Of a stretch of 32,000 nt of DNA, positions 4,934 to 15,111 are shown one piece after another. Each line of letters opens with the position of its first letter. The stretch's first letter is position 1. A program made the position numbers and the translations under genes. The stretch is from Gammaproteobacteria bacterium (GTDB lineage Bacteria; Pseudomonadota; Gammaproteobacteria; JBIOEC01), in contig OZ257143.1 of assembly GCA_965279305.1 (NCBI GenBank), positions 1,650,001 to 1,682,000 of the forward strand. Reading direction: 5' to 3'. Under the pieces are notes generated by a model. That model did no database searches and was not told where the DNA came from. It worked only from the letters and a program-made list of their open reading frames with translations.

Positions 4934-6931
4934 ATGACACCTGTTATCTCTCTGTACCCATCTTTGCAAAACCCTGATCTTTACGATGCCATTGTTATTG
5001 GGGGTGGTTTTGCGGGTACTTTTAGTGCTGTAGATCTGGTAAAAAAAGGCTACAGAACATTACACATTAATCTAGATCCAAGCATTCTTGGAGACAGCAG
5101 CTCAAGTGATAATCAATGCTTTAAAGCCCATCTTGGTGTTCACTATATGGGAGATGCTCAAACCGCTTACCAATGCTTAATAGGTTCTATCGAATTCGCC
5201 AGAGACTTCCCCCAGTTTCTTGAAGGGAAGATAGGAGACCCGTGGAGACGTGGCCGTCACTATGTGGTTTCAAATTCTTTATACCAACCCGAACCACTAT
5301 GTGAAGAATTAGTAAATCTATATAGAAGAAAAGTAGAAGATGATGAACGAAATGCTGTATTTGGTGATCCTGACGACTTAATCAAATACTTAAATCCTGA
5401 AGATTATCCTTATATTGCAAAAGAAATCCCCTACACTAATGAAGCTTTTTCTTTAGATATTTGTTATGCAATCAATCCATCCGATATTAAAACTCATAAA
5501 ATATATCTTTATCTAGAAGGCAATCAAATAAAATACAAAGCGCTTAACAAAAAAAGAGAACTTCAGGAAGTTTCAATTACAGATGATGAAATGCCTGAAG
5601 CGGAATCAATAAAAAATGTTTTAAGATCAGAAGGTGAAAAAGAGCTTACACCCTCACAGAAAAAATCCATTTATTCAGTTACATCTAAATACGATCCTTT
5701 TTTTTGCGAAGAAGGTTTAATCGAAACAATATATGTAAAAACTGCTATTGAGACACCTGAATCTCAAATTAACATTTCAAAATTACGAGCTTATTTACAG
5801 CAAAAGTTAGCAAAACATGAAAACTATACATTTTTACCCAACACTCGAGTCACTACTCTTAGCTTTGATCCAGGTACTTTAAATTATCAAGTTGGAACTG
5901 TTACAACTGAAGGTGGAACCGTTAAGCATAATACTTATACTACTGCTGGGATTATCAACTGTTCATGGCACAAAATTGAAGAACTGGATCGCCAACTGGG
6001 ATACATTGGAAAAGATGAGCAAATAGTTAACTCTGCTACTGGCTCTAAAAAAATCAAAAAAGAAAGAGTTGTTAGAATTAAAATCAGCTTACTAGTCGAA
6101 CTTCCTCCTAGTCTTAAAAATGTTAATACTTGTATTTTTTCCTGTGGACCTCACTTCTCTTTTACAAACCTTGGTGATGGAACCGCTATTCTTACCTATG
6201 AACCCGTCACCAATGCAGGTTCTTATCGAGCAGGTACAGTAATTCTTAATGATGATATACAAGCATTTTATAAAGAAAAATTAGTGCCTGAATCTGGAAA
6301 AGGAAAAGAACTTGCTGATAAAATTATGGATGGTTGTGCTAAATACTTTCCTGATTTAAGAAGTCCGGAATGCAAAGTGAAAAAAGTACGTTTAGGACAT
6401 GTGAAAATTTTCGTTGAAGAAGGCGAAAGCTATTCATTAACCGATAAAGATAGTGCCATTCATAAAAGACAAGAAACAGGTGTCGAACCTAAAGGTCTTT
6501 GTTTTTTTGATTTCTCCGGTATGAAAATGACTTATGCTATCGGTGGAGCTAAAGTGGTTGGAAATATGCTTGAAGCCCACTTTTTTACAAGAAGAAAATT
6601 ATTAGAAAGAGGCTCAACAACATTAGCACCTAATAAACACGTTGGAGAGCTTCTACGTCGAAAAAACATGGGATCTTTTTACAATTATATTCTCTATAAT
6701 GTATTTAGAAACTTCACTGTAGATACCACTCGTTCTATATGTGAGAAAACATTTTCATCAAATGCATCAAGTCCAGATATGATAGCCTCAGAAATTGAAA
6801 ATATTGATAGATTCACTAAAGCAACTATTATGGAAGGAATTCAGCAAAGAGCCTCACTAGTAGCTGAAATTAATGCTCTTGCTCCTGAGCCAAAATCCAT
6901 ACTAAAATCTTTCACTGCTATACCTGCTTAG
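4934..6931 (+). CDS. Orphan FAD-dependent oxidoreductase-like protein (DAO-type N-terminus) with a large insertion and a C-terminal extension
   Basis: The N-terminal dinucleotide-binding motif YDAIVIGGGFAGTFSA is followed by SSSDNQCFKAHLGVHYMGD, which resembles the DAO-family 'sgr.sg.iHaG.rY' segment. A Lys/Glu-rich low-complexity insertion spans about aa 150-270, and a tail of about 100 aa has no motif I recognise. The ORF is long and uninterrupted. Confidence 0.6.
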   Translation: MTPVISLYPSLQNPDLYDAIVIGGGFAGTFSAVDLVKKGYRTLHINLDPSILGDSSSSDNQCFKAHLGVHYMGDAQTAYQCLIGSIEFARDFPQFLEGKIGDPWRRGRHYVVSNSLYQPEPLCEELVNLYRRKVEDDERNAVFGDPDDLIKYLNPEDYPYIAKEIPYTNEAFSLDICYAINPSDIKTHKIYLYLEGNQIKYKALNKKRELQEVSITDDEMPEAESIKNVLRSEGEKELTPSQKKSIYSVTSKYDPFFCEEGLIETIYVKTAIETPESQINISKLRAYLQQKLAKHENYTFLPNTRVTTLSFDPGTLNYQVGTVTTEGGTVKHNTYTTAGIINCSWHKIEELDRQLGYIGKDEQIVNSATGSKKIKKERVVRIKISLLVELPPSLKNVNTCIFSCGPHFSFTNLGDGTAILTYEPVTNAGSYRAGTVILNDDIQAFYKEKLVPESGKGKELADKIMDGCAKYFPDLRSPECKVKKVRLGHVKIFVEEGESYSLTDKDSAIHKRQETGVEPKGLCFFDFSGMKMTYAIGGAKVVGNMLEAHFFTRRKLLERGSTTLAPNKHVGELLRRKNMGSFYNYILYNVFRNFTVDTTRSICEKTFSSNASSPDMIASEIENIDRFTKATIMEGIQQRASLVAEINALAPEPKSILKSFTAIPA

Positions 6932-8963
6932 GATGTGTGATAGCCCATTCATTATAAAATTCTTTGGCTTCATCTAGCGCATCAATAGTTTCTTGATAAT
7001 ATTTAGACACTTCTTCCATATTATTTTGCTTAGCTGCAGATTCAATTGATTTAATAACAGCTTCTAAACGCGGTAATCCGCAATAAGCTAAGGATCCTTT
7101 TAACTTATGAGTTACATTCTGTAGCAAAGGTAAATCTTGATTTTCATAAGCTTCTATTATAGTTTCTCGATTTTCATCAAAATCTTGTGCTAGGGTATGA
7201 AAAAGCTCTTCTAACATGCTTTTACTTTCGCCAAGGCGAGTATTCCATAAATTAAAATCAACAACCACTTTTTTTTCTTGGGTATTAATGGGCTGATTCA
7301 ATAAAGAAAGAATTTGATCAGATTTTTCTGGAGACAAAGGTTTTGATAGCACTTGTTGCATTCCTGCAGCTAAGCATTCTTTGGCAATGGCCTCATCAGC
7401 GTGTGCTGTAAGAGCAACAATATAAGATTTTTTACTCTTATTATTAACATCTCCTCTTATCTGACGTGTAGCTTCTATGCCACTCATTCGAGGTAAACCC
7501 ACATCCATATAAATGATATCGTATGGAGTAATAAAACTGAGCTCTATGGCTTCTTCACCTGACTTAGCTACATCGACTTTAAACCCCATGCTATTTAACA
7601 TTACTGTACCCATTTTTCTAGCCAGGGAATCATCTTCTACTAACAATATCTTTAATTTTCCTACTTCATAACTAACCGAACCTTTTTTACTTTCTTTGGT
7701 TTTCTTTTCCAATGCAACAGGGGCTATTTCCTCAGCATAATCCGTTTCTACAACATCGTTATCGTTTTCTAAAATTGAACGTTTAAACGGCAATATGGAA
7801 GTAAAAATAGATCCATGGCCTTCTTCACTTTCAACATAAATTTCGCCTTGCATTTTTTGGACATAGTCTTTAACCACATGTAATCCAAGCCCTGATCCAG
7901 GATATTGCCCTTCAAAAGAAGGATTTAATCGGCTAAAAGGTTCAAAAATAGCATCATGTTTCTCTTCTGAAATACCAATTCCGGTATCAATAACACTAAA
8001 CCTTAATAATATTTTATCGTCAGATTCTTGAGCTTTTTCAACCAATAACCTCACGCTTCCTTTTTCAGTAAACTTAAGCGCATTCCCCAATAGATTCATC
8101 AAAACTCGATGTAATCGCAAATGTTTTCCTAATAAATAATTGGGCACATCTTCTGCACATTCTATTTCTAATTTGAGTTTTTTATGCTTGGCAACTACTT
8201 CATAAGTTTCTCTCAAGCCTTGGAGGAGTTTGTATAGATCAAACTTGACTATGCGATCTTCAAAATCAAAATATTCCTTCTTTGAAACATCAATAATTTG
8301 ATTGAATAAGCCCATCAACTTCTTACTCGCTTCCCATGCCGCATAAGCATATTCGGCTGAATCTGCTTCTGGGGTCTTGCCTTCAGCTATCAAGCGTGTT
8401 GCTTGCTGTATGCCGGCTAAAGGAGTTCTAACATCATGGCTTATATTGCGGATAAATTCAGACTTGGCTTTATTAGCTCTTTCAGATTCTTCTTTCGCCT
8501 TTTTCAAGTTTTCTTCTAAATGTTTACGCTCTGTGATATCAGAATAAATAATCAAAACACCTGATATTCGGTTCCGCTCATCATACATAGGTACTTTACT
8601 AACAAGCATCACCCTTGTAGAACCATCTTTCTGCGTTTGAGTCTCTTCATAATCGAGCTTAGGTTTACCGGTACGAATAATTTCTTTTTCATCAGCAACA
8701 TAGGCTGCTCTCTGCTCCTCAGTCCAAGGAAAGTCATAGTCAGTTTTACCAATGATATCTTCCGGGGATTTAAGGCCAAGAGTGTCAGCAAATTTCTTAT
8801 TACAACCTAAAAAAACAGAGTTAGTATTTTTCCATACCAAAAAGTGAGGTACATTATTAATAATGGTATTTAGGTATGAAGCGGCGTTCTTTGAGACATG
8901 CTTACCTTTTGGTGTCTTATAAAACAGGCTTTTAAGCTTTTCTTTGATAAAATCTAAATTCAT
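6918..8963 (-). CDS. Cytoplasmic hybrid sensor histidine kinase (PAS - HisKA - HATPase_c - REC - HPt)
   Basis: There is no TM segment. A PAS-like N-terminus (FLGCNKKFADTLGLKSPEDIIGKTDYDF...) is followed by a coiled coil. Kinase motifs are the H-box ISHDVRTPLAGI, the N-box LLGNALKFT, G1 DTGIGIS and G2 GSGLGLHVV. The receiver domain shows ILLVEDDSLARK...IYMDVGLPRMSG...ALTAHA. The C-terminal HPt domain shows THKLKGSLAYCGL. Confidence 0.9.
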   Translation of the reverse strand: MNLDFIKEKLKSLFYKTPKGKHVSKNAASYLNTIINNVPHFLVWKNTNSVFLGCNKKFADTLGLKSPEDIIGKTDYDFPWTEEQRAAYVADEKEIIRTGKPKLDYEETQTQKDGSTRVMLVSKVPMYDERNRISGVLIIYSDITERKHLEENLKKAKEESERANKAKSEFIRNISHDVRTPLAGIQQATRLIAEGKTPEADSAEYAYAAWEASKKLMGLFNQIIDVSKKEYFDFEDRIVKFDLYKLLQGLRETYEVVAKHKKLKLEIECAEDVPNYLLGKHLRLHRVLMNLLGNALKFTEKGSVRLLVEKAQESDDKILLRFSVIDTGIGISEEKHDAIFEPFSRLNPSFEGQYPGSGLGLHVVKDYVQKMQGEIYVESEEGHGSIFTSILPFKRSILENDNDVVETDYAEEIAPVALEKKTKESKKGSVSYEVGKLKILLVEDDSLARKMGTVMLNSMGFKVDVAKSGEEAIELSFITPYDIIYMDVGLPRMSGIEATRQIRGDVNNKSKKSYIVALTAHADEAIAKECLAAGMQQVLSKPLSPEKSDQILSLLNQPINTQEKKVVVDFNLWNTRLGESKSMLEELFHTLAQDFDENRETIIEAYENQDLPLLQNVTHKLKGSLAYCGLPRLEAVIKSIESAAKQNNMEEVSKYYQETIDALDEAKEFYNEWAITHPKQV

Positions 8964-9030
8964 AATCTTTGCTTCTTACCTAAAGAAATAGTTGATTAAC
9001 TTACAATAAATATAACTTCCTTACTTTTTG

Positions 9031-9039
9031 AGTATATCA
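9031..9039 (-). promoter_or_regulatory. Possible extended -10 element for the hybrid kinase gene
   Basis: The minus strand reads TGaTATACT, about 60 nt upstream of ATG 8963. There is no convincing -35 element. Confidence 0.25.
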
Positions 9040-9128
9040 TTCTTGTCTACTTACAGATATTGGGAAACGGCTCCTTTTCGGCAGGTAAATATCCTACAAA
9101 ATTACCACTACCATCTATGAGGGATGGG

Positions 9129-9165
9129 AAAACATTTCTATCTTCCTTAATGGAAAAAATGTTTT
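9129..9165 (-). terminator. A/T-rich inverted repeat immediately after the SLATT gene stop (weak terminator candidate)
   Basis: AAAACATTT (9129-9137) pairs with AAATGTTTT (9157-9165), and an inner TTCC/GGAA pair lies between them. The repeat starts 1 nt after the TAA at 9167-9169. The stem is almost entirely A/U, so it is weak. Confidence 0.25.
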
Positions 9166-9166
9166 T

Positions 9167-10021
9167 TTAAGCATGATACCGTGCAAGCCATTGAGTATGC
9201 TCTCGAGAAAAAGCACTTTCTGCATCATTTATAAAAGCAGAAAACTCTTCTTCAGAGGTACTTACAACAAATTTTTCCGAAATTAGTCCTATCTCATAAG
9301 TAGTTAAAGAATAAGTTGCAGATAGCTCTTTATATCGTTTAGCTTGCACCCATACCATTATTAACGAAGCAAAAGTAATAAAAACATCTGAAAACTGATA
9401 ACTAGGACGCCATATCTTTAAAATTGAAAAAAAGATCGCTGCCAAAGTAATAGCAATTAGTAGACGAAAAAAATAAGTGTCTTTTTTTTGATTAAAGTTT
9501 GACTTTTCCTTATACCATCCAAGTTGATCCGCTATTCTTTTTTGTTTATAGAACCTTTTCCTTTCATCTAAACTTTTATCGCGAATATTTTCCATAAACT
9601 TTGATATCTGGTTAGCACCTTCTTTCATAGGTGACTCTTTAAAGACACTGGAATTTTCTTTCAAGATACCTTTCAGCCTTACTAAAAAAAGTTGACGAGC
9701 TTCAGTATTTGGTATGTCGTAAGGCTCAGCTCTCATCATATAAAGCCAAGTAATTGTTTTTATTGACTCAGCAAGCGCTCTCTGCGCATACCAGGCTTTT
9801 TGAGGCTCAAAATATCCTATGTAAAAAGTTACAAAAAGATTAGCGGCCAAAATAGTAGTTTGGATTATCGCAACAGGAGTGCTAGAAGGAAGAGTTGAGG
9901 AAATAGCAGCAGCCAATAGGAAAAACAACCCAAATCCCAGCGCCACAAAGAAATTTCTTTGTGCACCAGAAGCTAAAGAATTAGCTGTTTGATAAAGGGA
10001 TGGATAAAAGGTCTCTTTCAT
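9167..10021 (-). CDS. 4-TM membrane protein with tandem SLATT/DUF4231-like modules (predicted membrane effector)
   Basis: Two TM hairpins (aa ~24-44/50-71 and ~183-201/212-226) are each followed by an amphipathic helix (KAWYAQRALAESIKTITWLY; AKRYKELSATYSLTTYEIGLI). The RFYKQKRIADQLGWYKEKSNFNQKK motif before hairpin 2 and the C-terminal SREHTQWLAR are typical of DUF4231/SLATT proteins as I remember them. The ATG overlaps the stop of the upstream TIR-like gene (ATGA at 10018-10021). Confidence 0.75.
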   Translation of the reverse strand: MKETFYPSLYQTANSLASGAQRNFFVALGFGLFFLLAAAISSTLPSSTPVAIIQTTILAANLFVTFYIGYFEPQKAWYAQRALAESIKTITWLYMMRAEPYDIPNTEARQLFLVRLKGILKENSSVFKESPMKEGANQISKFMENIRDKSLDERKRFYKQKRIADQLGWYKEKSNFNQKKDTYFFRLLIAITLAAIFFSILKIWRPSYQFSDVFITFASLIMVWVQAKRYKELSATYSLTTYEIGLISEKFVVSTSEEEFSAFINDAESAFSREHTQWLARYHA

Positions 10022-10527
10022 ATTATACCCAACTTCTTATATAAGTCTTCTTCATAATAGTAATTCTTCTTTTCACCGTCTCTAAGTTTATGACGTGCAT
10101 AATTTGCACAAAAGTCATCCAGTGCATGTTTGATGATGGCTAATTTGAATGGTACGTGGACAGCTCCTTTCCCGTCTAAAATTGCAGGGCACAGTGAAGA
10201 ATCCATCCGTCGATTATTGTTTAAGTTAACTGCAACAATCGCAACTCCATTATCAAGACAGGTCTCAATCTCCCACCTAACATAACGATATAAATTTTTA
10301 GTATTTTCCCCAATTAATACTATTGCTTGCTTGGTATTTGCCAAGCGCTCTCTTAATTTACGCTTTACGGTCTCTTCACTTGAATTATCTCTTAACTCAT
10401 TTAAATCATGTGCATCATGAAAATCGAAGTCTATATGCTCTTGGGTATTCCAACCTTTCATAAAACCATATGCCCACATATCATTGTCGCCATCAAATAT
10501 CACATAAGTTTTATTTCTATATCCCAT
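10018..10527 (-). CDS. TIR-like domain protein (MTH538/DUF1863 type, ThsB-like)
   Basis: The sequence KTYVIFDGDNDMWAYGFMKGW...FDFHDAHDLNELRDNSSEETVKRKLRERLANTKQAIVLIGENTKNLYRYVRWEIETCL...VAVNLN matches the stand-alone bacterial TIR-like family pattern. That pattern is a beta-A strand plus acidic loop, an 'vvLIGe.T' strand, and a 'W(V)xxEIE' helix with a candidate catalytic Glu (E86, nt 10270-10272). A strong GAGGTG Shine-Dalgarno site lies 5 nt upstream of ATG 10527. Confidence 0.8.
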   Translation of the reverse strand: MGYRNKTYVIFDGDNDMWAYGFMKGWNTQEHIDFDFHDAHDLNELRDNSSEETVKRKLRERLANTKQAIVLIGENTKNLYRYVRWEIETCLDNGVAIVAVNLNNNRRMDSSLCPAILDGKGAVHVPFKLAIIKHALDDFCANYARHKLRDGEKKNYYYEEDLYKKLGII

Positions 10528-10559
10528 GTTCCACCTCGTTTGTCAAAAAAAATAATTTA

Positions 10560-10580
10560 GCACTCAACAGCCTAGAGTGC
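10560..10580 (-). promoter_or_regulatory. Inverted repeat at the predicted transcription start of the TIR-SLATT operon (operator or 5' stem-loop candidate)
   Basis: GCACTC (10560-10565), a 9-nt spacer, then GAGTGC (10575-10580). It lies just downstream of the -10 element at 10583-10588. Confidence 0.3.
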
Positions 10581-10582
10581 CA

Positions 10583-10610
10583 ATTCTAACAAAGCTTTTG
10601 CCTCTGTCAA
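10583..10610 (-). promoter_or_regulatory. Near-consensus sigma70 promoter for the TIR-SLATT operon
   Basis: The minus strand reads TTGACA (10610-10605), a 16-nt spacer, then TAGAAT (10588-10583). The -35 is perfect and the -10 matches 5 of 6 positions. It lies about 55 nt upstream of ATG 10527. Confidence 0.5.
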
Positions 10611-10909
10611 GCGATTGGTTATTTTTTGATCATAAGAAATAATAATTCAGCAAGCTCTATTAAAAATTTAAAATATATTTAAATGGTATCTATACTTTTA
10701 TCTATTCCCTACATACTGCATTTTCGAAATGTTATACTGACTAACGGTTATAGTGAGGAAAATGAACCTTTAGACTTAGGAAGGTTTATCATCCCAAAGC
10801 CTAGAACTACTATGAATTAAAATCCCCATATACAGCCTCAAAAATGAGAATCCCATCTCCCTCTGGGAAAGGCGATTTACTTGATTGTTCATTTAAGATA
10901 CAACCCAAG

Positions 10910-10929
10910 TTAAACACAAGTTATCCACA
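10910..10929 (+). promoter_or_regulatory. Tandem DnaA boxes upstream of nrdA
   Basis: TTATCCACA at 10921-10929 is a perfect consensus DnaA box. It is preceded after 2 bp by TTAAACACA (10910-10918), which matches TTATNCACA at 8 of 9 positions. Both have the same orientation and lie about 170-190 nt upstream of the nrdA ATG. Confidence 0.5.
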
Positions 10930-10979
10930 GCTTACTCCACTGTTTTGGGCTTGTTTTTTCATTTCAAACGCGCTATCTT

Positions 10980-10988
10980 GTATACACA
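10980..10988 (+). promoter_or_regulatory. Third DnaA-box-like 9-mer
   Basis: GTATACACA matches TTATNCACA at 8 of 9 positions and has the same orientation as the two upstream boxes. Confidence 0.3.
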
Positions 10989-10997
10989 GGGCGGGAA

Positions 10998-11013
10998 CCC
11001 CTAGATATTGTGT
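10998..11013 (+). promoter_or_regulatory. Candidate NrdR box
   Basis: CCCCTAGATATTGTGT matches the 16-bp NrdR-box consensus acaCwAtATaTwGtgt (as I recall it) at 13 of 16 positions. It lies about 90 nt upstream of the nrdA ATG. Confidence 0.4.
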
Positions 11014-11039
11014 TTTATTACTCAGTAAGCCCTATTCTG

Positions 11040-11055
11040 CTACTAAATCTAGTAA
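11040..11055 (+). promoter_or_regulatory. Weaker second NrdR-box-like palindrome
   Basis: CTACTAAATCTAGTAA (inner palindrome TACTA-N4-TAGTA) matches the NrdR consensus at 10 of 16 positions. Its centre is 42 bp, about four helical turns, from the first box. Confidence 0.2.
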
Positions 11056-11098
11056 TACATGGAAGTTTAAACAGTACAAAAAAAATGGAGAAGATGCC

Positions 11099-13990
11099 AT
11101 GGAAACCCCTATCGCCACGTTGGCACGTGTTGACTACGACAATAACAGTGCTGCGAATACACAAGCCACTGATTTTTCAGAACAAATTAATAATATGCTG
11201 ACTAATGGTCCTTTTAAAGTCATACGCAGAAACGGTACTGTCGCTCCTTATACAGACGGTAAAATTGCGCTCGCCATCACCAAAGCATTTTTAGCGGTGG
11301 AAGGCGATAAAGCGGCCGACTCTTCTCGTATTCATGAAACAGTAGCCAAGATGGTATCTAGAATTACCGAGACTTTCAGCAAACGTATGCCTGAAGGTGG
11401 CACCTTACATATTGAATATATACAAGACCAAGTTGAATTAGAATTAATGCGCGAAGGCTTACATAAAGTAGCGCGCTCTTATGTGCTTTATCGTGAAGAA
11501 AGAAGACGTGCCCGCGAAGCAGAGCAAAAAGCTTCTCAAGTTCAGTTACGCGTTACGTTAAAAAATGGTGAACTAGCTCCTCTTGATATGGCGTATGTGG
11601 ATCGCTTAATCACGGAAGCCTGCTCTAATCTTGATCATGTGAAAAAAGAAGACATGTTACAAGAAACCGTTAAAAATCTTTATGACGGCGTGCCTTTGCA
11701 AGATATACATAAAGCATTGGTGATGACCGCCAGAACCCATATTGAAAACGAACCGAATTACACTTATGTCACCGCTCGTTTGCTTTTAAATGAATTACGC
11801 GAAGAAGCCCTCTCCTTTTTAAATATGCCCCATAAATTGGAGCAATTAGGGCAAGCGGAAATGGCAAGTTCTTATCCTGAATGCTTAGGACGCTTTATTA
11901 AAGCAGGGATCGAATATGAATTGCTAGATCCTCGTATGCAACATTACGATTTAGATCGTTTAGGTAAAGCCTTAGTTCCTGAACGCGATTTACAGTTTTC
12001 TTATTTAGGTTTACAAACCCTTTATGATCGCTATTTTATTCAGTGGGAAGGCATTCGCTTTGAATTACCCCAAATATTTTTTATGCGCGTAGCGATGGGT
12101 TTAGCAAGCCAAGAGCAAGATAAAGAAAAGTGGGCGATTGAATTTTATAATGTGCTCTCTACTTTTGATTTTATGAGCTCAACCCCTACTCTGTTTAATT
12201 CAGGCACATTGCGCCCTCAATTATCGAGCTGCTATTTAACGACAGTGCCTGATAATTTAGATGGTATTTATAGCGCGATTAAAGACAATGCCTTATTACA
12301 AAAATATGCAGGCGGTTTAGGAAACGATTGGACACCCGTGCGTGCACTCAATGCGAAAATTAAAGGCACTAACGGTAAATCGCAAGGCGTAGTACCCTTC
12401 TTAAAAGTGGCTAACGATACTGCTGTAGCGGTTAACCAAGGTGGAAAACGCAAAGGCGCTTTATGCAGTTACTTGGAATCCTGGCATTTAGATATTCTAG
12501 AATTTTTAGAATTACGAAAAAATACCGGTGATGAACGTCGTCGTACTCATGATATGAATACCGCGAATTGGATCCCTGATTTATTAATGAAGCGGATCGA
12601 AGAAAACGGTAACTGGACACTATTCTCTCCTGATGAAGTGCCAGATCTACATGATTTATACGGTGAAGCCTTTGAAACTGCTTACACTCGTTATGAAGTG
12701 TTAGCGTCACAAAATAAAATCCGAAATCATAAAACCATGTTGGCCGTAGATTTATGGCGCAAAATGCTGAGCTTATTATTTGAAACCGGCCATCCTTGGG
12801 TTACATTTAAAGATGTATGCAATATACGCTCACCTCAACAACATACAGGTGTAGTGCATAGTTCTAATTTGTGCACCGAAATTACCTTAAATACCTCTGC
12901 CGATGAAATTGCGGTATGTAACTTGGGTAGTATCAACCTGGTGCAACATATGATTAAAACCGGTGCTGGTGCGATTATTAATGAAGCAAAATTAGAAAAA
13001 ACGATTAAGCTAGCGGTTCGCATGCTTGATAACGTTGTGGATATTAACTTTTATTCTGTTCCACAAGCGAAAAACTCTAATATGCGTCATCGCCCTATTG
13101 GAATGGGATTAATGGGCTTCCAAGATGTGCTTTATTTGCAAGGTATTCCTTATGCCTCTGATTCAGCCGTTGAATTTGCAGATCGCTCTATGGAAACCAT
13201 TAGTTATTACGCCATTAAAGCCTCTACTGATTTAGCAGAAGAACGCGGTACCTATTCTACTTTCCCAGGTTCATTGTGGAGCAAAGGTATTCTGCCTATC
13301 GATTCTATTCGATTATTAGAAGAAAATCGTGGCGCACAATATTTAAAACAAGATCGCTCTATGAGTAAAGATTGGACCAGCTTGCGTGAACGTGTCATGA
13401 AAGTGGGCGTAAGAAACTCTAATATTATGGCCATTGCACCTACTGCCACTATTTCTAATATTTGTGGTGTGAGCCAATCTATTGAGCCTACATACCAAAA
13501 CTTATATGTGAAATCGAATTTGTCAGGCGAATTTACTATTATCAACCCCTACTTGGTCGATGAATTACGTGCCAGAGATTTGTGGGATGATGTGATGGTT
13601 AACGATCTTAAATACTTTGATGGTAGCGTTCAACAAATTGAACGTATTCCTCAAGATATTAAAGACAAATACGCTACCGCTTTTGAAATGGATGCGTTAT
13701 GGTTAGTGGAAGCCGGCTCACGCCGCCAAAAATGGATTGATCAAGCACAATCGCTTAATTTATATATGGCAAAACCGTCTGGTAAAAAATTGGATACTTT
13801 ATATCGCACCGCTTGGCTGCGCGGTTTAAAAACCACTTATTATCTACGAAGCATGGGCGCAACTGGTACTGAAAAATCCACGGTTAACCAAGGTGTATTA
13901 AATGCAGTAGCCCTTGCTAATACAGCCGTTGAAGAAGTCATGCCAAAAGCATGCTCTATATTGGATCCAGATTGTGAAGCGTGTCAATAA
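11099..13990 (+). CDS. nrdA: Ribonucleoside-diphosphate reductase class Ia, alpha subunit
   Basis: An ATP-cone (FKVIRRNGTVAPYTDGKIALAITKAF), the catalytic loop HSSNLCTEI, and a C-terminal Cys pair (DPDCEACQ) are present. ATG 11099 (METPIATL...) has a GGAGA Shine-Dalgarno site about 7 nt upstream. The 85 codons that the track adds from 10844 do not look like protein and overlap the DnaA and NrdR sites. Confidence 0.95.
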   Translation: METPIATLARVDYDNNSAANTQATDFSEQINNMLTNGPFKVIRRNGTVAPYTDGKIALAITKAFLAVEGDKAADSSRIHETVAKMVSRITETFSKRMPEGGTLHIEYIQDQVELELMREGLHKVARSYVLYREERRRAREAEQKASQVQLRVTLKNGELAPLDMAYVDRLITEACSNLDHVKKEDMLQETVKNLYDGVPLQDIHKALVMTARTHIENEPNYTYVTARLLLNELREEALSFLNMPHKLEQLGQAEMASSYPECLGRFIKAGIEYELLDPRMQHYDLDRLGKALVPERDLQFSYLGLQTLYDRYFIQWEGIRFELPQIFFMRVAMGLASQEQDKEKWAIEFYNVLSTFDFMSSTPTLFNSGTLRPQLSSCYLTTVPDNLDGIYSAIKDNALLQKYAGGLGNDWTPVRALNAKIKGTNGKSQGVVPFLKVANDTAVAVNQGGKRKGALCSYLESWHLDILEFLELRKNTGDERRRTHDMNTANWIPDLLMKRIEENGNWTLFSPDEVPDLHDLYGEAFETAYTRYEVLASQNKIRNHKTMLAVDLWRKMLSLLFETGHPWVTFKDVCNIRSPQQHTGVVHSSNLCTEITLNTSADEIAVCNLGSINLVQHMIKTGAGAIINEAKLEKTIKLAVRMLDNVVDINFYSVPQAKNSNMRHRPIGMGLMGFQDVLYLQGIPYASDSAVEFADRSMETISYYAIKASTDLAEERGTYSTFPGSLWSKGILPIDSIRLLEENRGAQYLKQDRSMSKDWTSLRERVMKVGVRNSNIMAIAPTATISNICGVSQSIEPTYQNLYVKSNLSGEFTIINPYLVDELRARDLWDDVMVNDLKYFDGSVQQIERIPQDIKDKYATAFEMDALWLVEAGSRRQKWIDQAQSLNLYMAKPSGKKLDTLYRTAWLRGLKTTYYLRSMGATGTEKSTVNQGVLNAVALANTAVEEVMPKACSILDPDCEACQ

Positions 13991-14016
13991 AACAAGAATA
14001 ATGTGAGGTATTTTTT

Positions 14017-15111
14017 ATGTCATCAGTTGCTACTCCGGAAAAAGCACCCGTAGCCGGTTACACAGGTTTAGAAGCCATTGAAATGGGTGCTGCACGCATT
14101 CAAGTGGACGATAAAAAAATTATTAACTGTCGTGCGGATCTTAACCAGCTTGTACCTTTTAAATATCCATGGGCTTGGCAAAAATATTTAGATGGATGTG
14201 CAAATCATTGGATGCCAACAGAAATTAGCATGTCAGCCGATATCGCTCTTTGGAAAAGCAAAGACGGTCTAACTGAAGACGAGCGCATGATTATTGAACG
14301 TGCATTAGGGTTTTTCTCTACTGCCGATTCTTTAGTAGCCAACAATTTAGTATTAGCGGTTTATCGCCATATTACTAATCCTGAATGCCGCCAATATTTA
14401 TTGCGTCAATCATTTGAAGAAGCACTGCATACTCATGCTTATCAATATATTATTGAAAGCTTAGGTATGGACGAATCTCGTGTATTTAATATGTATCGCG
14501 AGCTTCCTTCGGTATCTCATAAAGCCATGTGGGCATTGCCTTATACACAAAGTTTAGGCGATCCTACTTTTATGACAGGAACACCTGAAAATGATCAACG
14601 CTTATTACGCGACTTAATTGCGTTCTACGTGGTATTTGAAGGTATTTTCTTCTATGTAGGATTTTCTCAAGTATTATCCATGGGACGTCGTAACAAAATG
14701 GTAGGTACTGCTGAGCAACTACAATATATTTTGCGCGATGAATCTATGCATTTAAACTTTGGTATTGATGTGATTAACCAAATTAAATTTGAAAATCCTC
14801 ATATATGGACACAAGAATTCCAACAACAAGCGATTAAAATTATACGCGAAGGTGTTGAACTCGAATGCCAATATGCGATCGATACCATGCCTAGAGGCGT
14901 GTTAGGGCTTAATGCTACCGTATTCCAAGAATACGTGAAATTTATTGCCAACCGTCGCTGCGCACAAATTGGATTGCCAGAGCAATATGCGGGTGTAACC
15001 AACCCCTTCCCTTGGATGAGCGAAATCGCCGATCTCAAAAAAGAGAAAAACTTCTTTGAAACCCGCGTAATCGAATACCAAGCCGGCGGCACCCTCTCCT
15101 GGGAAGACTAA
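14017..15111 (+). CDS. nrdB: Ribonucleoside-diphosphate reductase class Ia, beta subunit
   Basis: The di-iron ExxH motifs ([10 protein letters not shown]; RDESMHLNF) are present. A GAGG Shine-Dalgarno site precedes ATG 14017, which lies 26 nt after the nrdA stop. Confidence 0.95.

Follow-up and report, generated by a model that had tools for sequence, protein, structure and literature searches.

A TIR–SLATT gene pair in a gammaproteobacterial genome as a probable minimal type VII Thoeris anti-phage system

Two overlapping minus-strand genes in a gammaproteobacterial genome, one for a small TIR protein and one for a membrane protein with two SLATT domains, raise the question of which defence system they represent and by which signal the two products would communicate. 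They lie in a stretch of 32,000 nucleotides (nt), positions 1,650,001 to 1,682,000 of the forward strand of contig OZ257143.1 (GCA_965279305.1, Gammaproteobacteria bacterium, JBIOEC01), which is referred to below as the window and supplies all coordinates given without a locus number. We estimate at roughly 80% the probability that the pair, designated thsB and thsH, is a minimal type VII Thoeris anti-phage system. Systems of this kind have already been named and studied by experiment, and the remaining interest lies in the combination of a tyrosine-type ThsB, from a lineage formerly tied to Thoeris systems with a Macro effector, with ThsH. The features on which the argument draws are the following, with lengths and residue numbers in amino acids (aa):

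10018..10527, minus strand: thsB, stand-alone ThsB-type TIR of 169 aa, tyrosine active-site subfamily (Pfam, PADLOC, PDB, AlphaFold2)
10504..10506, minus strand: codon of Tyr8, the active-site tyrosine position, aligned to the Tyr in EcThsB2 'NKTYVAF' and in type X TIRs
10270..10272, minus strand: codon of Glu86, the predicted catalytic glutamate, in one alignment column with BcThsB 'RYEI' and EcThsB2 'AHEI'
10021..10080, minus strand: C-terminal tail of ThsB, about residues 150-169, 'NYYYEEDLYKKLGII', which aligns to the end of 8V6T
9167..10021, minus strand: thsH, membrane effector of 284 aa with tandem SLATT domains (Pfam, NCBIfam, homologues, AlphaFold2)
9557..10003, minus strand: SLATT_3 domain, aa 7-155, holding transmembrane helices 1 and 2 (Pfam 9.1e-36; NCBIfam 2e-41)
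9188..9550, minus strand: SLATT_1 domain, aa 158-278, holding transmembrane helices 3 and 4 and the C-terminal 'AFSREHTQW' (Pfam 4.9e-29; NCBIfam 9.5e-32)
9743-9745, minus strand: codon of ThsH residue 93, R93 to L relative to the family alignment
10018..10021, minus strand: stop/start overlap of thsB and thsH, 4 nt, ATGA (read from the sequence)
10532..10537, minus strand: Shine-Dalgarno sequence GAGGTG, spaced 4 nt from the thsB ATG at 10527 (read from the sequence)
10583..10610, minus strand: putative promoter TTGACA-N16-TAGAAT with a TG-extended -10 element (11 of 12 consensus matches)

ThsB is predicted to be a stand-alone TIR enzyme with its catalytic glutamate intact. It matches PF08937 (ThsB_TIR) of Pfam at 7.8e-19 and the PADLOC ThsB model PDLC00429 over its full length at 1.6e-65. 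Its closest solved relative is EcThsB2 (PDB 8V6T), matched in sequence over the full length at 6.1e-31, and the same entry is the best Foldseek match (E 1.1e-13, template-modelling score, TM, 0.79) of the AlphaFold2 model, which has a predicted local distance difference test (pLDDT) value of 78 and also matches the ThsB crystal structures 8FZ9, 8WCF, 9B7D and 6LHY in its fold. Homologues number 1063, and the best 119 of these are 58-70% identical to the window protein. In an alignment of 81 TIRs (window ThsB, BcThsB, EcThsB2 and 78 others) the column of Glu86 holds Glu in 80 sequences, as it does in all Table S1 reference TIRs (see below), and the residue is invariant in 26 close homologues. 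Thus, the sequence-only reading of this DNA, which had recognised a TIR-like protein and proposed Glu86 as its catalytic residue, is borne out on both counts, by PF08937, PADLOC and the ThsB structures for the family, and by alignment with the catalytic Glu of BcThsB and EcThsB2 for the residue.

The position of Tyr8 is occupied by Phe in most TIR NADases, i.e. enzymes that cleave nicotinamide adenine dinucleotide (NAD). In EcThsB2, a TIR of a TM-Macro Thoeris system, the active-site Tyr is hydrogen-bonded to the catalytic Glu and the C-terminal tail folds back; the protein had no NADase activity in vitro, and the active-site Tyr was tied to altered chemistry (Shi et al., Sci Adv 2024, PMC11204291). 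The window ThsB resembles EcThsB2, and through it type II Thoeris, in its full-length match and in the alignment of active-site Tyr, catalytic Glu and tyrosine-rich tail. Of the tail residues, Y158 and Y163 do not vary among close homologues and L166 and G167 hardly do, and AlphaFold2 places a helix at 160-166. Both TIR marks of the EcThsB2-like "subfamily 9", the tail of some 20 residues and the active-site Tyr, are present, whereas the Macro effector of type II Thoeris is absent beside thsB, where the partner is a tandem SLATT protein and not a TM-Macro protein. Shi et al. held this subfamily to be exclusive to Macro systems (PMC11204291), an exclusivity that does not hold, as Table S1 of Yirmiya et al. 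(below) had already shown.

ThsH is predicted to be a four-helix inner-membrane protein of the same family as the ThsH effectors that have been validated experimentally. In addition to the two SLATT domains, Pfam reports a DUF4231 match (1.1e-16) that overlaps SLATT_3; the assignment of this protein to DUF4231/SLATT had been made from the letters alone, and Pfam and NCBIfam agree with it. Likewise, the four membrane helices proposed at that stage are backed by hydropathy and AlphaFold2, at about 24-44, 48-69, 183-203 and 210-228, the fourth being the least hydrophobic. The two helix pairs are separated by a basic linker of about 110 residues, and the AlphaFold2 model is all-helical (pLDDT 89.3, predicted template-modelling score 0.84). 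There are 739 homologues, the best 120 of which all measure around 287 aa and have the tandem architecture in common, and residues E268-A280 are at least 97% conserved among 79 family members. No PDB entry was matched by sequence, and a Foldseek search with the model gave no match at E <= 0.001; a weak likeness to alpha-pore-forming toxins and ABC-transporter helices (TM about 0.2-0.3) is left uninterpreted. No model of the 2023 PADLOC catalogue matches ThsH, so that this catalogue would report the locus as an orphan ThsB only.

The two genes are predicted to be co-transcribed and translationally coupled. Both open reading frames (ORFs) were verified at the lengths listed, and their start codons are backed by invariant N-termini in homologue alignments. 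Among homologous loci, which are denoted here by the letter L and a number, the gene pairs of L001, L088 and L089 have the identical 4-nt overlap and that of L087 overlaps by 8 nt. The promoter-like site lies about 56 nt 5' of the thsB ATG and is the top-scoring site in 8900-10900, although this AT-rich region contains seven such sites against 8.0 +/- 3.0 expected from shuffled sequence, i.e. no excess over chance. A search for an intrinsic terminator 3' of the thsH end (9167) detected none. The type VII arrangement of TIR and effector in one operon is seen here in the ATGA overlap and the single upstream promoter-like site. The ORFs, overlap, Shine-Dalgarno and promoter motifs of the sequence-only reading were all found where it had placed them, and its view of the pair as an operon agrees with the homologous loci. 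An imperfect 24-nt inverted repeat (10547-10627; 71% complementary, arms 33 nt apart) flanks the -10 and -35 hexamers of the putative thsB promoter, and could be an operator or a chance occurrence in AT-rich DNA.

The combination of a TIR protein with a SLATT protein was named "type VII Thoeris" (ThsB plus ThsH) by Yirmiya et al. (December 2025, bioRxiv 10.64898/2025.12.03.692087), who surveyed TIR operons within defence islands. Three type VII systems, from an Alteromonadales metagenome scaffold, Pseudohongiella nitratireducens SCS-111 and Bacillus licheniformis SCCB 37, protect E. coli or B. subtilis against phages, while three further ones, including that of the closest tested relative of the window TIR, gave no defence in B. 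subtilis. The validated TIRs make canonical cyclic ADP-ribose (cADPR) only upon infection, and the growth of cells carrying a type VII system is stopped by exogenous cADPR and not by 2'cADPR or 3'cADPR. By AlphaFold3, ThsH is predicted to form a membrane-spanning oligomer with basic pockets between protomers (all 10.64898/2025.12.03.692087). A later preprint employed a type VII system as a specific cADPR biosensor (10.64898/2026.04.20.719644), and the Aravind group had earlier predicted SLATT to be a permeability effector, gated by an ADP-ribose (ADPR) derivative and linked to TIR. The premise of the sequence-only reading that such a pairing had been predicted only computationally is consequently superseded, in that type VII Thoeris has been shown to defend and to signal via cADPR.

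Scanning 185,579 species genomes with a sequence pattern gave 248 loci, 80 of which were retrieved for neighbour analysis. A TIR gene adjoins the SLATT gene in 72 of the 80, and in 69 it lies upstream on the same strand. Use of the window TIR as sole query left 22 of the 72 TIR-adjacent loci undetected, and these 22 carry other TIR lineages. The partner TIRs of the SLATT family fall into four or more lineages, of which two have been validated by experiment: one with the motif 'FISHAW' that is 58-64% identical to the validated Pseudohongiella ThsB, another that is 71-87% identical to the validated Alteromonadales ThsB, the window protein's own class A, and a weak lineage resembling that of B. 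licheniformis. Within class A, A1 comprises the window ThsB and 11 loci (motif 'RNKTYVIFD', Tyr present), and A2 comprises about 30 loci (motif 'LPRTFVGFS') with the usual Phe, which is also the residue of the validated type VII TIRs in the alignment; the catalytic Glu and the C-terminal tail are kept in both. A ThsH-like protein is thus paired with a tyrosine-type ThsB in 11 of the 80 loci sampled, or about one in seven, and in the window locus besides.

The exact validated Alteromonadales scaffold is absent from the metagenome collection, and contigs with a TIR 95% identical to its ThsB were used as a proxy. Beside this TIR they encode a SLATT protein of 288-290 aa, with which ThsH is colinear over residues 1-281 (35% identity, E 5e-52) and shares the same SLATT_3/SLATT_1 boundaries. 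Because of the SLATT family homology, the adjacency of TIR genes in 72 of 80 loci and these shared domain boundaries, the pair has the architecture of type VII Thoeris, i.e. a ThsB-type TIR with a predicted catalytic Glu next to a ThsH homologue in one putative operon. The likeness to the validated systems thus extends to gene order (TIR, then SLATT), to the effector family of about 287 aa with SLATT_3 and SLATT_1, and to the catalytic Glu; the difference is that the window TIR belongs to another lineage, with Tyr in place of Phe at the active site and with the C-terminal tail.

By analogy with its homologues, the system would work as follows. Phage infection would activate ThsB, which would make a small signalling nucleotide from NAD+; this nucleotide would bind the cytoplasmic face of ThsH, which would then oligomerise into a membrane-breaching assembly, and the infected cell would be arrested or killed before phage progeny are released, i.e. 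by abortive infection. The logic proposed from the sequence at the outset, with the TIR protein sensing infection and making a signal and the SLATT protein acting as membrane executioner, fits the published homologous systems, the profile matches and the homologous loci.

TIR domains deplete NAD as effectors in CBASS, Pycsar, SPARTA and some Avs systems, and the window TIR could conceivably be toxic in itself through NAD+ depletion, with the SLATT protein as a membrane anchor, sensor or independent toxin. Such a role for the TIR is conceded as possible for unverified configurations by Yirmiya et al. (10.64898/2025.12.03.692087). However, the TIRs of the validated TIR plus SLATT systems make a signal and cADPR alone is toxic, SLATT is a recognised effector module, and ThsB is a minimal TIR of 169 aa without a sensor or partner-binding domain, the closest solved relative of which showed no NADase activity. 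We therefore regard a toxic TIR as most improbable here, and the alternative left by the sequence-only reading, that the TIR simply depletes NAD, runs counter to what validated type VII systems do.

Other systems with related parts can be told apart by gene content. When 20 flanking ORFs, each 90 aa or longer, were scanned against Pfam (window about 190-25563), none proved to be a SIR2/SLOG, Macro or cyclase gene, and neither ThsB nor ThsH has a Pfam match to a SIR2 or SLOG domain; the earlier statement that the locus is not a canonical Thoeris (type I or II), CBASS or Pycsar system accordingly stands. Type I Thoeris shares with the window pair a ThsB-family TIR signal generator (PF08937) and the logic of abortive infection, but there is no SIR2-SLOG gene in the window, and the type I effector depletes NAD, whereas the window effector is predicted to act on the membrane. 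CBASS with SLATT or two-transmembrane effectors and the SMODS/SLOG/SLATT systems (Burroughs, Aravind) are alike in having a SLATT membrane effector that is switched on by a nucleotide second messenger; they differ in that no CD-NTase/SMODS cyclase occurs among the 20 flanking ORFs, the generator is a TIR, and the SLATT domains are SLATT_3 and SLATT_1 rather than, for example, SLATT_4.

Against the assignment to type VII Thoeris weigh the setting of the locus, the state of its effector and the lineage of its TIR. The pair has a hybrid sensor kinase gene on one side and the nrdA-nrdB operon on the other, and the remaining scanned genes are nearly all housekeeping genes (mnmA, hflD, sodB, glutaredoxin, a two-component system, mlaA, scpAB and serS), without a defence island or marks of a mobile element: near the pair there is no tRNA, no integrase, no meaningful flanking repeat and no clear shift in GC content. 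ThsH, moreover, departs from the family at five positions that are 92-96% conserved: residue 93 is Leu where 92% of relatives have Arg, and A17, T241, I264 and S269 stand in place of Ser, Ala, Val and Asn, respectively. These observations would suit a decaying remnant, or a gene pair put to some non-defence use in a small genome, that is inactive against phages, as would the divergence of ThsH (nearest relative 48% identical, vs 70% for the TIR) and the failure of a related system in a heterologous host. On the other hand, the ORFs are full length, and the starts, Shine-Dalgarno sequence, near-consensus promoter and conserved ATGA coupling are intact; the invariant positions of the TIR alignment are retained, including the catalytic Glu (by construction), as are the 41 most conserved positions of ThsH. 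We consider a remnant or a non-defence use to be very unlikely.

The contexts of homologues count in favour of type VII Thoeris. SLATT genes overlap downstream in all three of the close window-TIR homologues sampled (63-65% identical), one of which adjoins McrBC and another a SMODS-SLATT_4 pair and further TIR genes. Across homologues more widely, the contexts include McrBC, a CBASS cyclase with SLATT_4, type I restriction-modification and extra ThsBs, and a Legionella pneumophila copy is carried on an integrative element. Read as a type VII Thoeris system, the window locus adds an example from a small-genome gammaproteobacterial lineage, in the form of a bare two-gene unit among housekeeping genes, and indicates that such systems need not reside in defence islands.

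Which signal would pass from ThsB to ThsH? Canonical (N1) cADPR appears the most likely because it is the only molecule known to trigger the ThsH effector family, but we put its chances only somewhat above even because the window ThsB is of a different, tyrosine-type, TIR lineage. The window protein is only 22-34% identical to the three cADPR-making TIRs, in partial alignments, and falls in none of the three cADPR-validated sequence clusters. Its subfamily is that of the active-site tyrosine, whose characterised members (EcThsB2, type II, type X) behave differently. It is 64% identical to the TIR of Bacillus sp. PvP124 (Table S1, "SLATT - Type VII", cluster 2598792572), and PvP124 is the only tested system of a tyrosine-type TIR with SLATT, giving no defence in B. 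subtilis (10.64898/2025.12.03.692087). Cluster 2598792572 also supplies 209 type II systems (Table S1, same source) as well as type X TIRs, to which the window ThsB is 43-51% identical. The type II ThsB product is His-ADPR and the type I signal is 3'cADPR, while for type X ThsB none of the known molecules was detected, cADPR included (10.64898/2025.12.03.692087). Type X Thoeris is similar to the window system in its TIR, which has the same 'NKTY' and 'VRWEI' motifs and belongs to the same sequence cluster, and differs in its effector, a predicted ion channel instead of SLATT.

The same architecture could accordingly operate with another signal, the tyrosine-type ThsB making an ADPR conjugate or another NAD-derived molecule (such as His-ADPR or the type X signal), which this lineage of ThsH would sense. 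The alignment of Tyr8 with the active-site Tyr of EcThsB2, the rank of 8V6T as best match in both sequence and structure, the altered chemistry and lack of NADase activity in that protein (PMC11204291), the service of one TIR cluster in both type II and type X systems and the PvP124 result all speak for this alternative. Set against it are the effectors. The validated ThsH responds to cADPR only, and SLATT sequences do not segregate by partner TIR class, the window ThsH being 39-44% identical to members of every class. No SLATT column was found that separates A1-partnered effectors from those partnered with TIRs of the validated types, and over all partner classes 41 positions reach 97% conservation or more; Arg, Lys, His, Trp and Tyr are frequent among them, and R81, K88, R147, R154, R162, K173, R273 and H275 are included. 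As an argument for a shared ThsH ligand this conservation is indirect, which counts among the weaknesses of the type VII interpretation.

A further line of argument against another signal comes from mixed operons. Four loci pair a class B TIR and a class A2 TIR with one SLATT gene, and tyrosine-type TIRs occur together with TIRs of cADPR-validated clusters in operons that have a single effector (L073, L059) and, in L073, with a ThsI-like TPR-S protein (described below). It is accepted for Thoeris that more than one ThsB sensor can act on the same effector through a common signal, and if this applies here, the mixed operons indirectly favour cADPR for the tyrosine-type TIRs. Taking both sides together, we hold this alternative, in which an ADPR conjugate or another NAD-derived molecule acts on ThsH, to be doubtful. 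That tyrosine-type ThsBs have a different signal seems rather unlikely, and the specific proposal that they make a non-cADPR NAD-derived molecule, with ThsH retuned to it and a Phe-to-Tyr switch setting the product, strikes us as unlikely. Were that proposal true, the SLATT family, and hence "type VII Thoeris", would span at least two signalling chemistries. In general terms, if tyrosine-type TIRs make cADPR, the active-site Tyr does not dictate the identity of the product; otherwise, there is more than one ligand that ThsH recognises.

Locus L073 (3822-6870, Sabulibacter ruber) encodes, head to tail, a 403-aa TPR-S protein (PF20308), a TIR of the B. licheniformis type (42% identical to the validated one), a tyrosine-type TIR and SLATT. 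The array looks like a combined operon of type VII and type VIII Thoeris, in which the TPR-S protein, judged solely by its described domain, would fit ThsI, the cADPR-responsive type VIII effector. L019, L022, L072 and L076 likewise have TPR-S proteins of this sort beside their SLATT genes. In L059 (802-3305), from a metagenome-assembled genome of Balneolaceae, a gene for Nmad2 (PF18753, "nucleotide modification associated domain 2") stands between two TIR genes ahead of SLATT, and an Nmad2-like ORF also precedes the SLATT gene of L066 (5288-5908).

More than one TIR gene per locus is also seen in L054 (5110-6846), L062 (1389-3129), L063 (3709-5450) and L083 (5044-6783), three-gene operons of Haemophilus, Campylobacter and Neisseria assemblies in which a 'FISHAW' TIR and a class A2 TIR stand in tandem 5' of one SLATT gene. 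Directly 3' of SLATT, a conserved gene for a protein of 372-376 aa is found in L011 (6891-8018), L027 (1694-2821), L001 (6943-8061) and L055 (6905-7318). Its product has a weak TIR_2-like N-terminus ('LVFISHDSRDA..AEAFANLL') and may serve as an additional TIR sensor. The window lacks this gene and, unlike several related loci, has no third, accessory TIR gene. In the SLATT-adjacent ThsB of Pseudomonas sp. GM80 (L018, about 5527-5982), Gln replaces the catalytic Glu ('HVCWQVEVA') and the Tyr/Phe position holds Ile; this TIR is probably inactive. A single product of 282 aa on a 1078-bp JGI contig (P0178) is annotated with both PF08937 and PF18181 (SLATT_1), and represents either a fusion of TIR and SLATT or, the contig being short, a gene call with a frameshift.

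Among the remaining ORFs of the window, one of 665 aa (4934-6931) has as its sole Pfam match a 35-residue FAD-binding motif, and one of 344 aa (21490-22524) has no Pfam match. The nrdA-nrdB operon (10844-15111) adjoins the thsB-thsH pair and is transcribed divergently from it. The nrdA ORF (1048 aa) opens about 95 codons 5' of a plausible start, 'METPIATLARVDYD...' (10844-11128), and its ATP-cone begins at residue 125; the N-terminal extension is probably untranslated, in which case some 600 nt of divergent intergenic DNA would separate thsB from nrdA. In the Pseudoduganella sp. that carries the closest genome relative of the window TIR (68% identical; L039, 1276-6852), nrdA, nrdB, TIR and SLATT genes follow one another on one strand. 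This is the only one of 83 related loci with such a neighbourhood, which could reflect chance, an insertion hotspot or shared ancestry.

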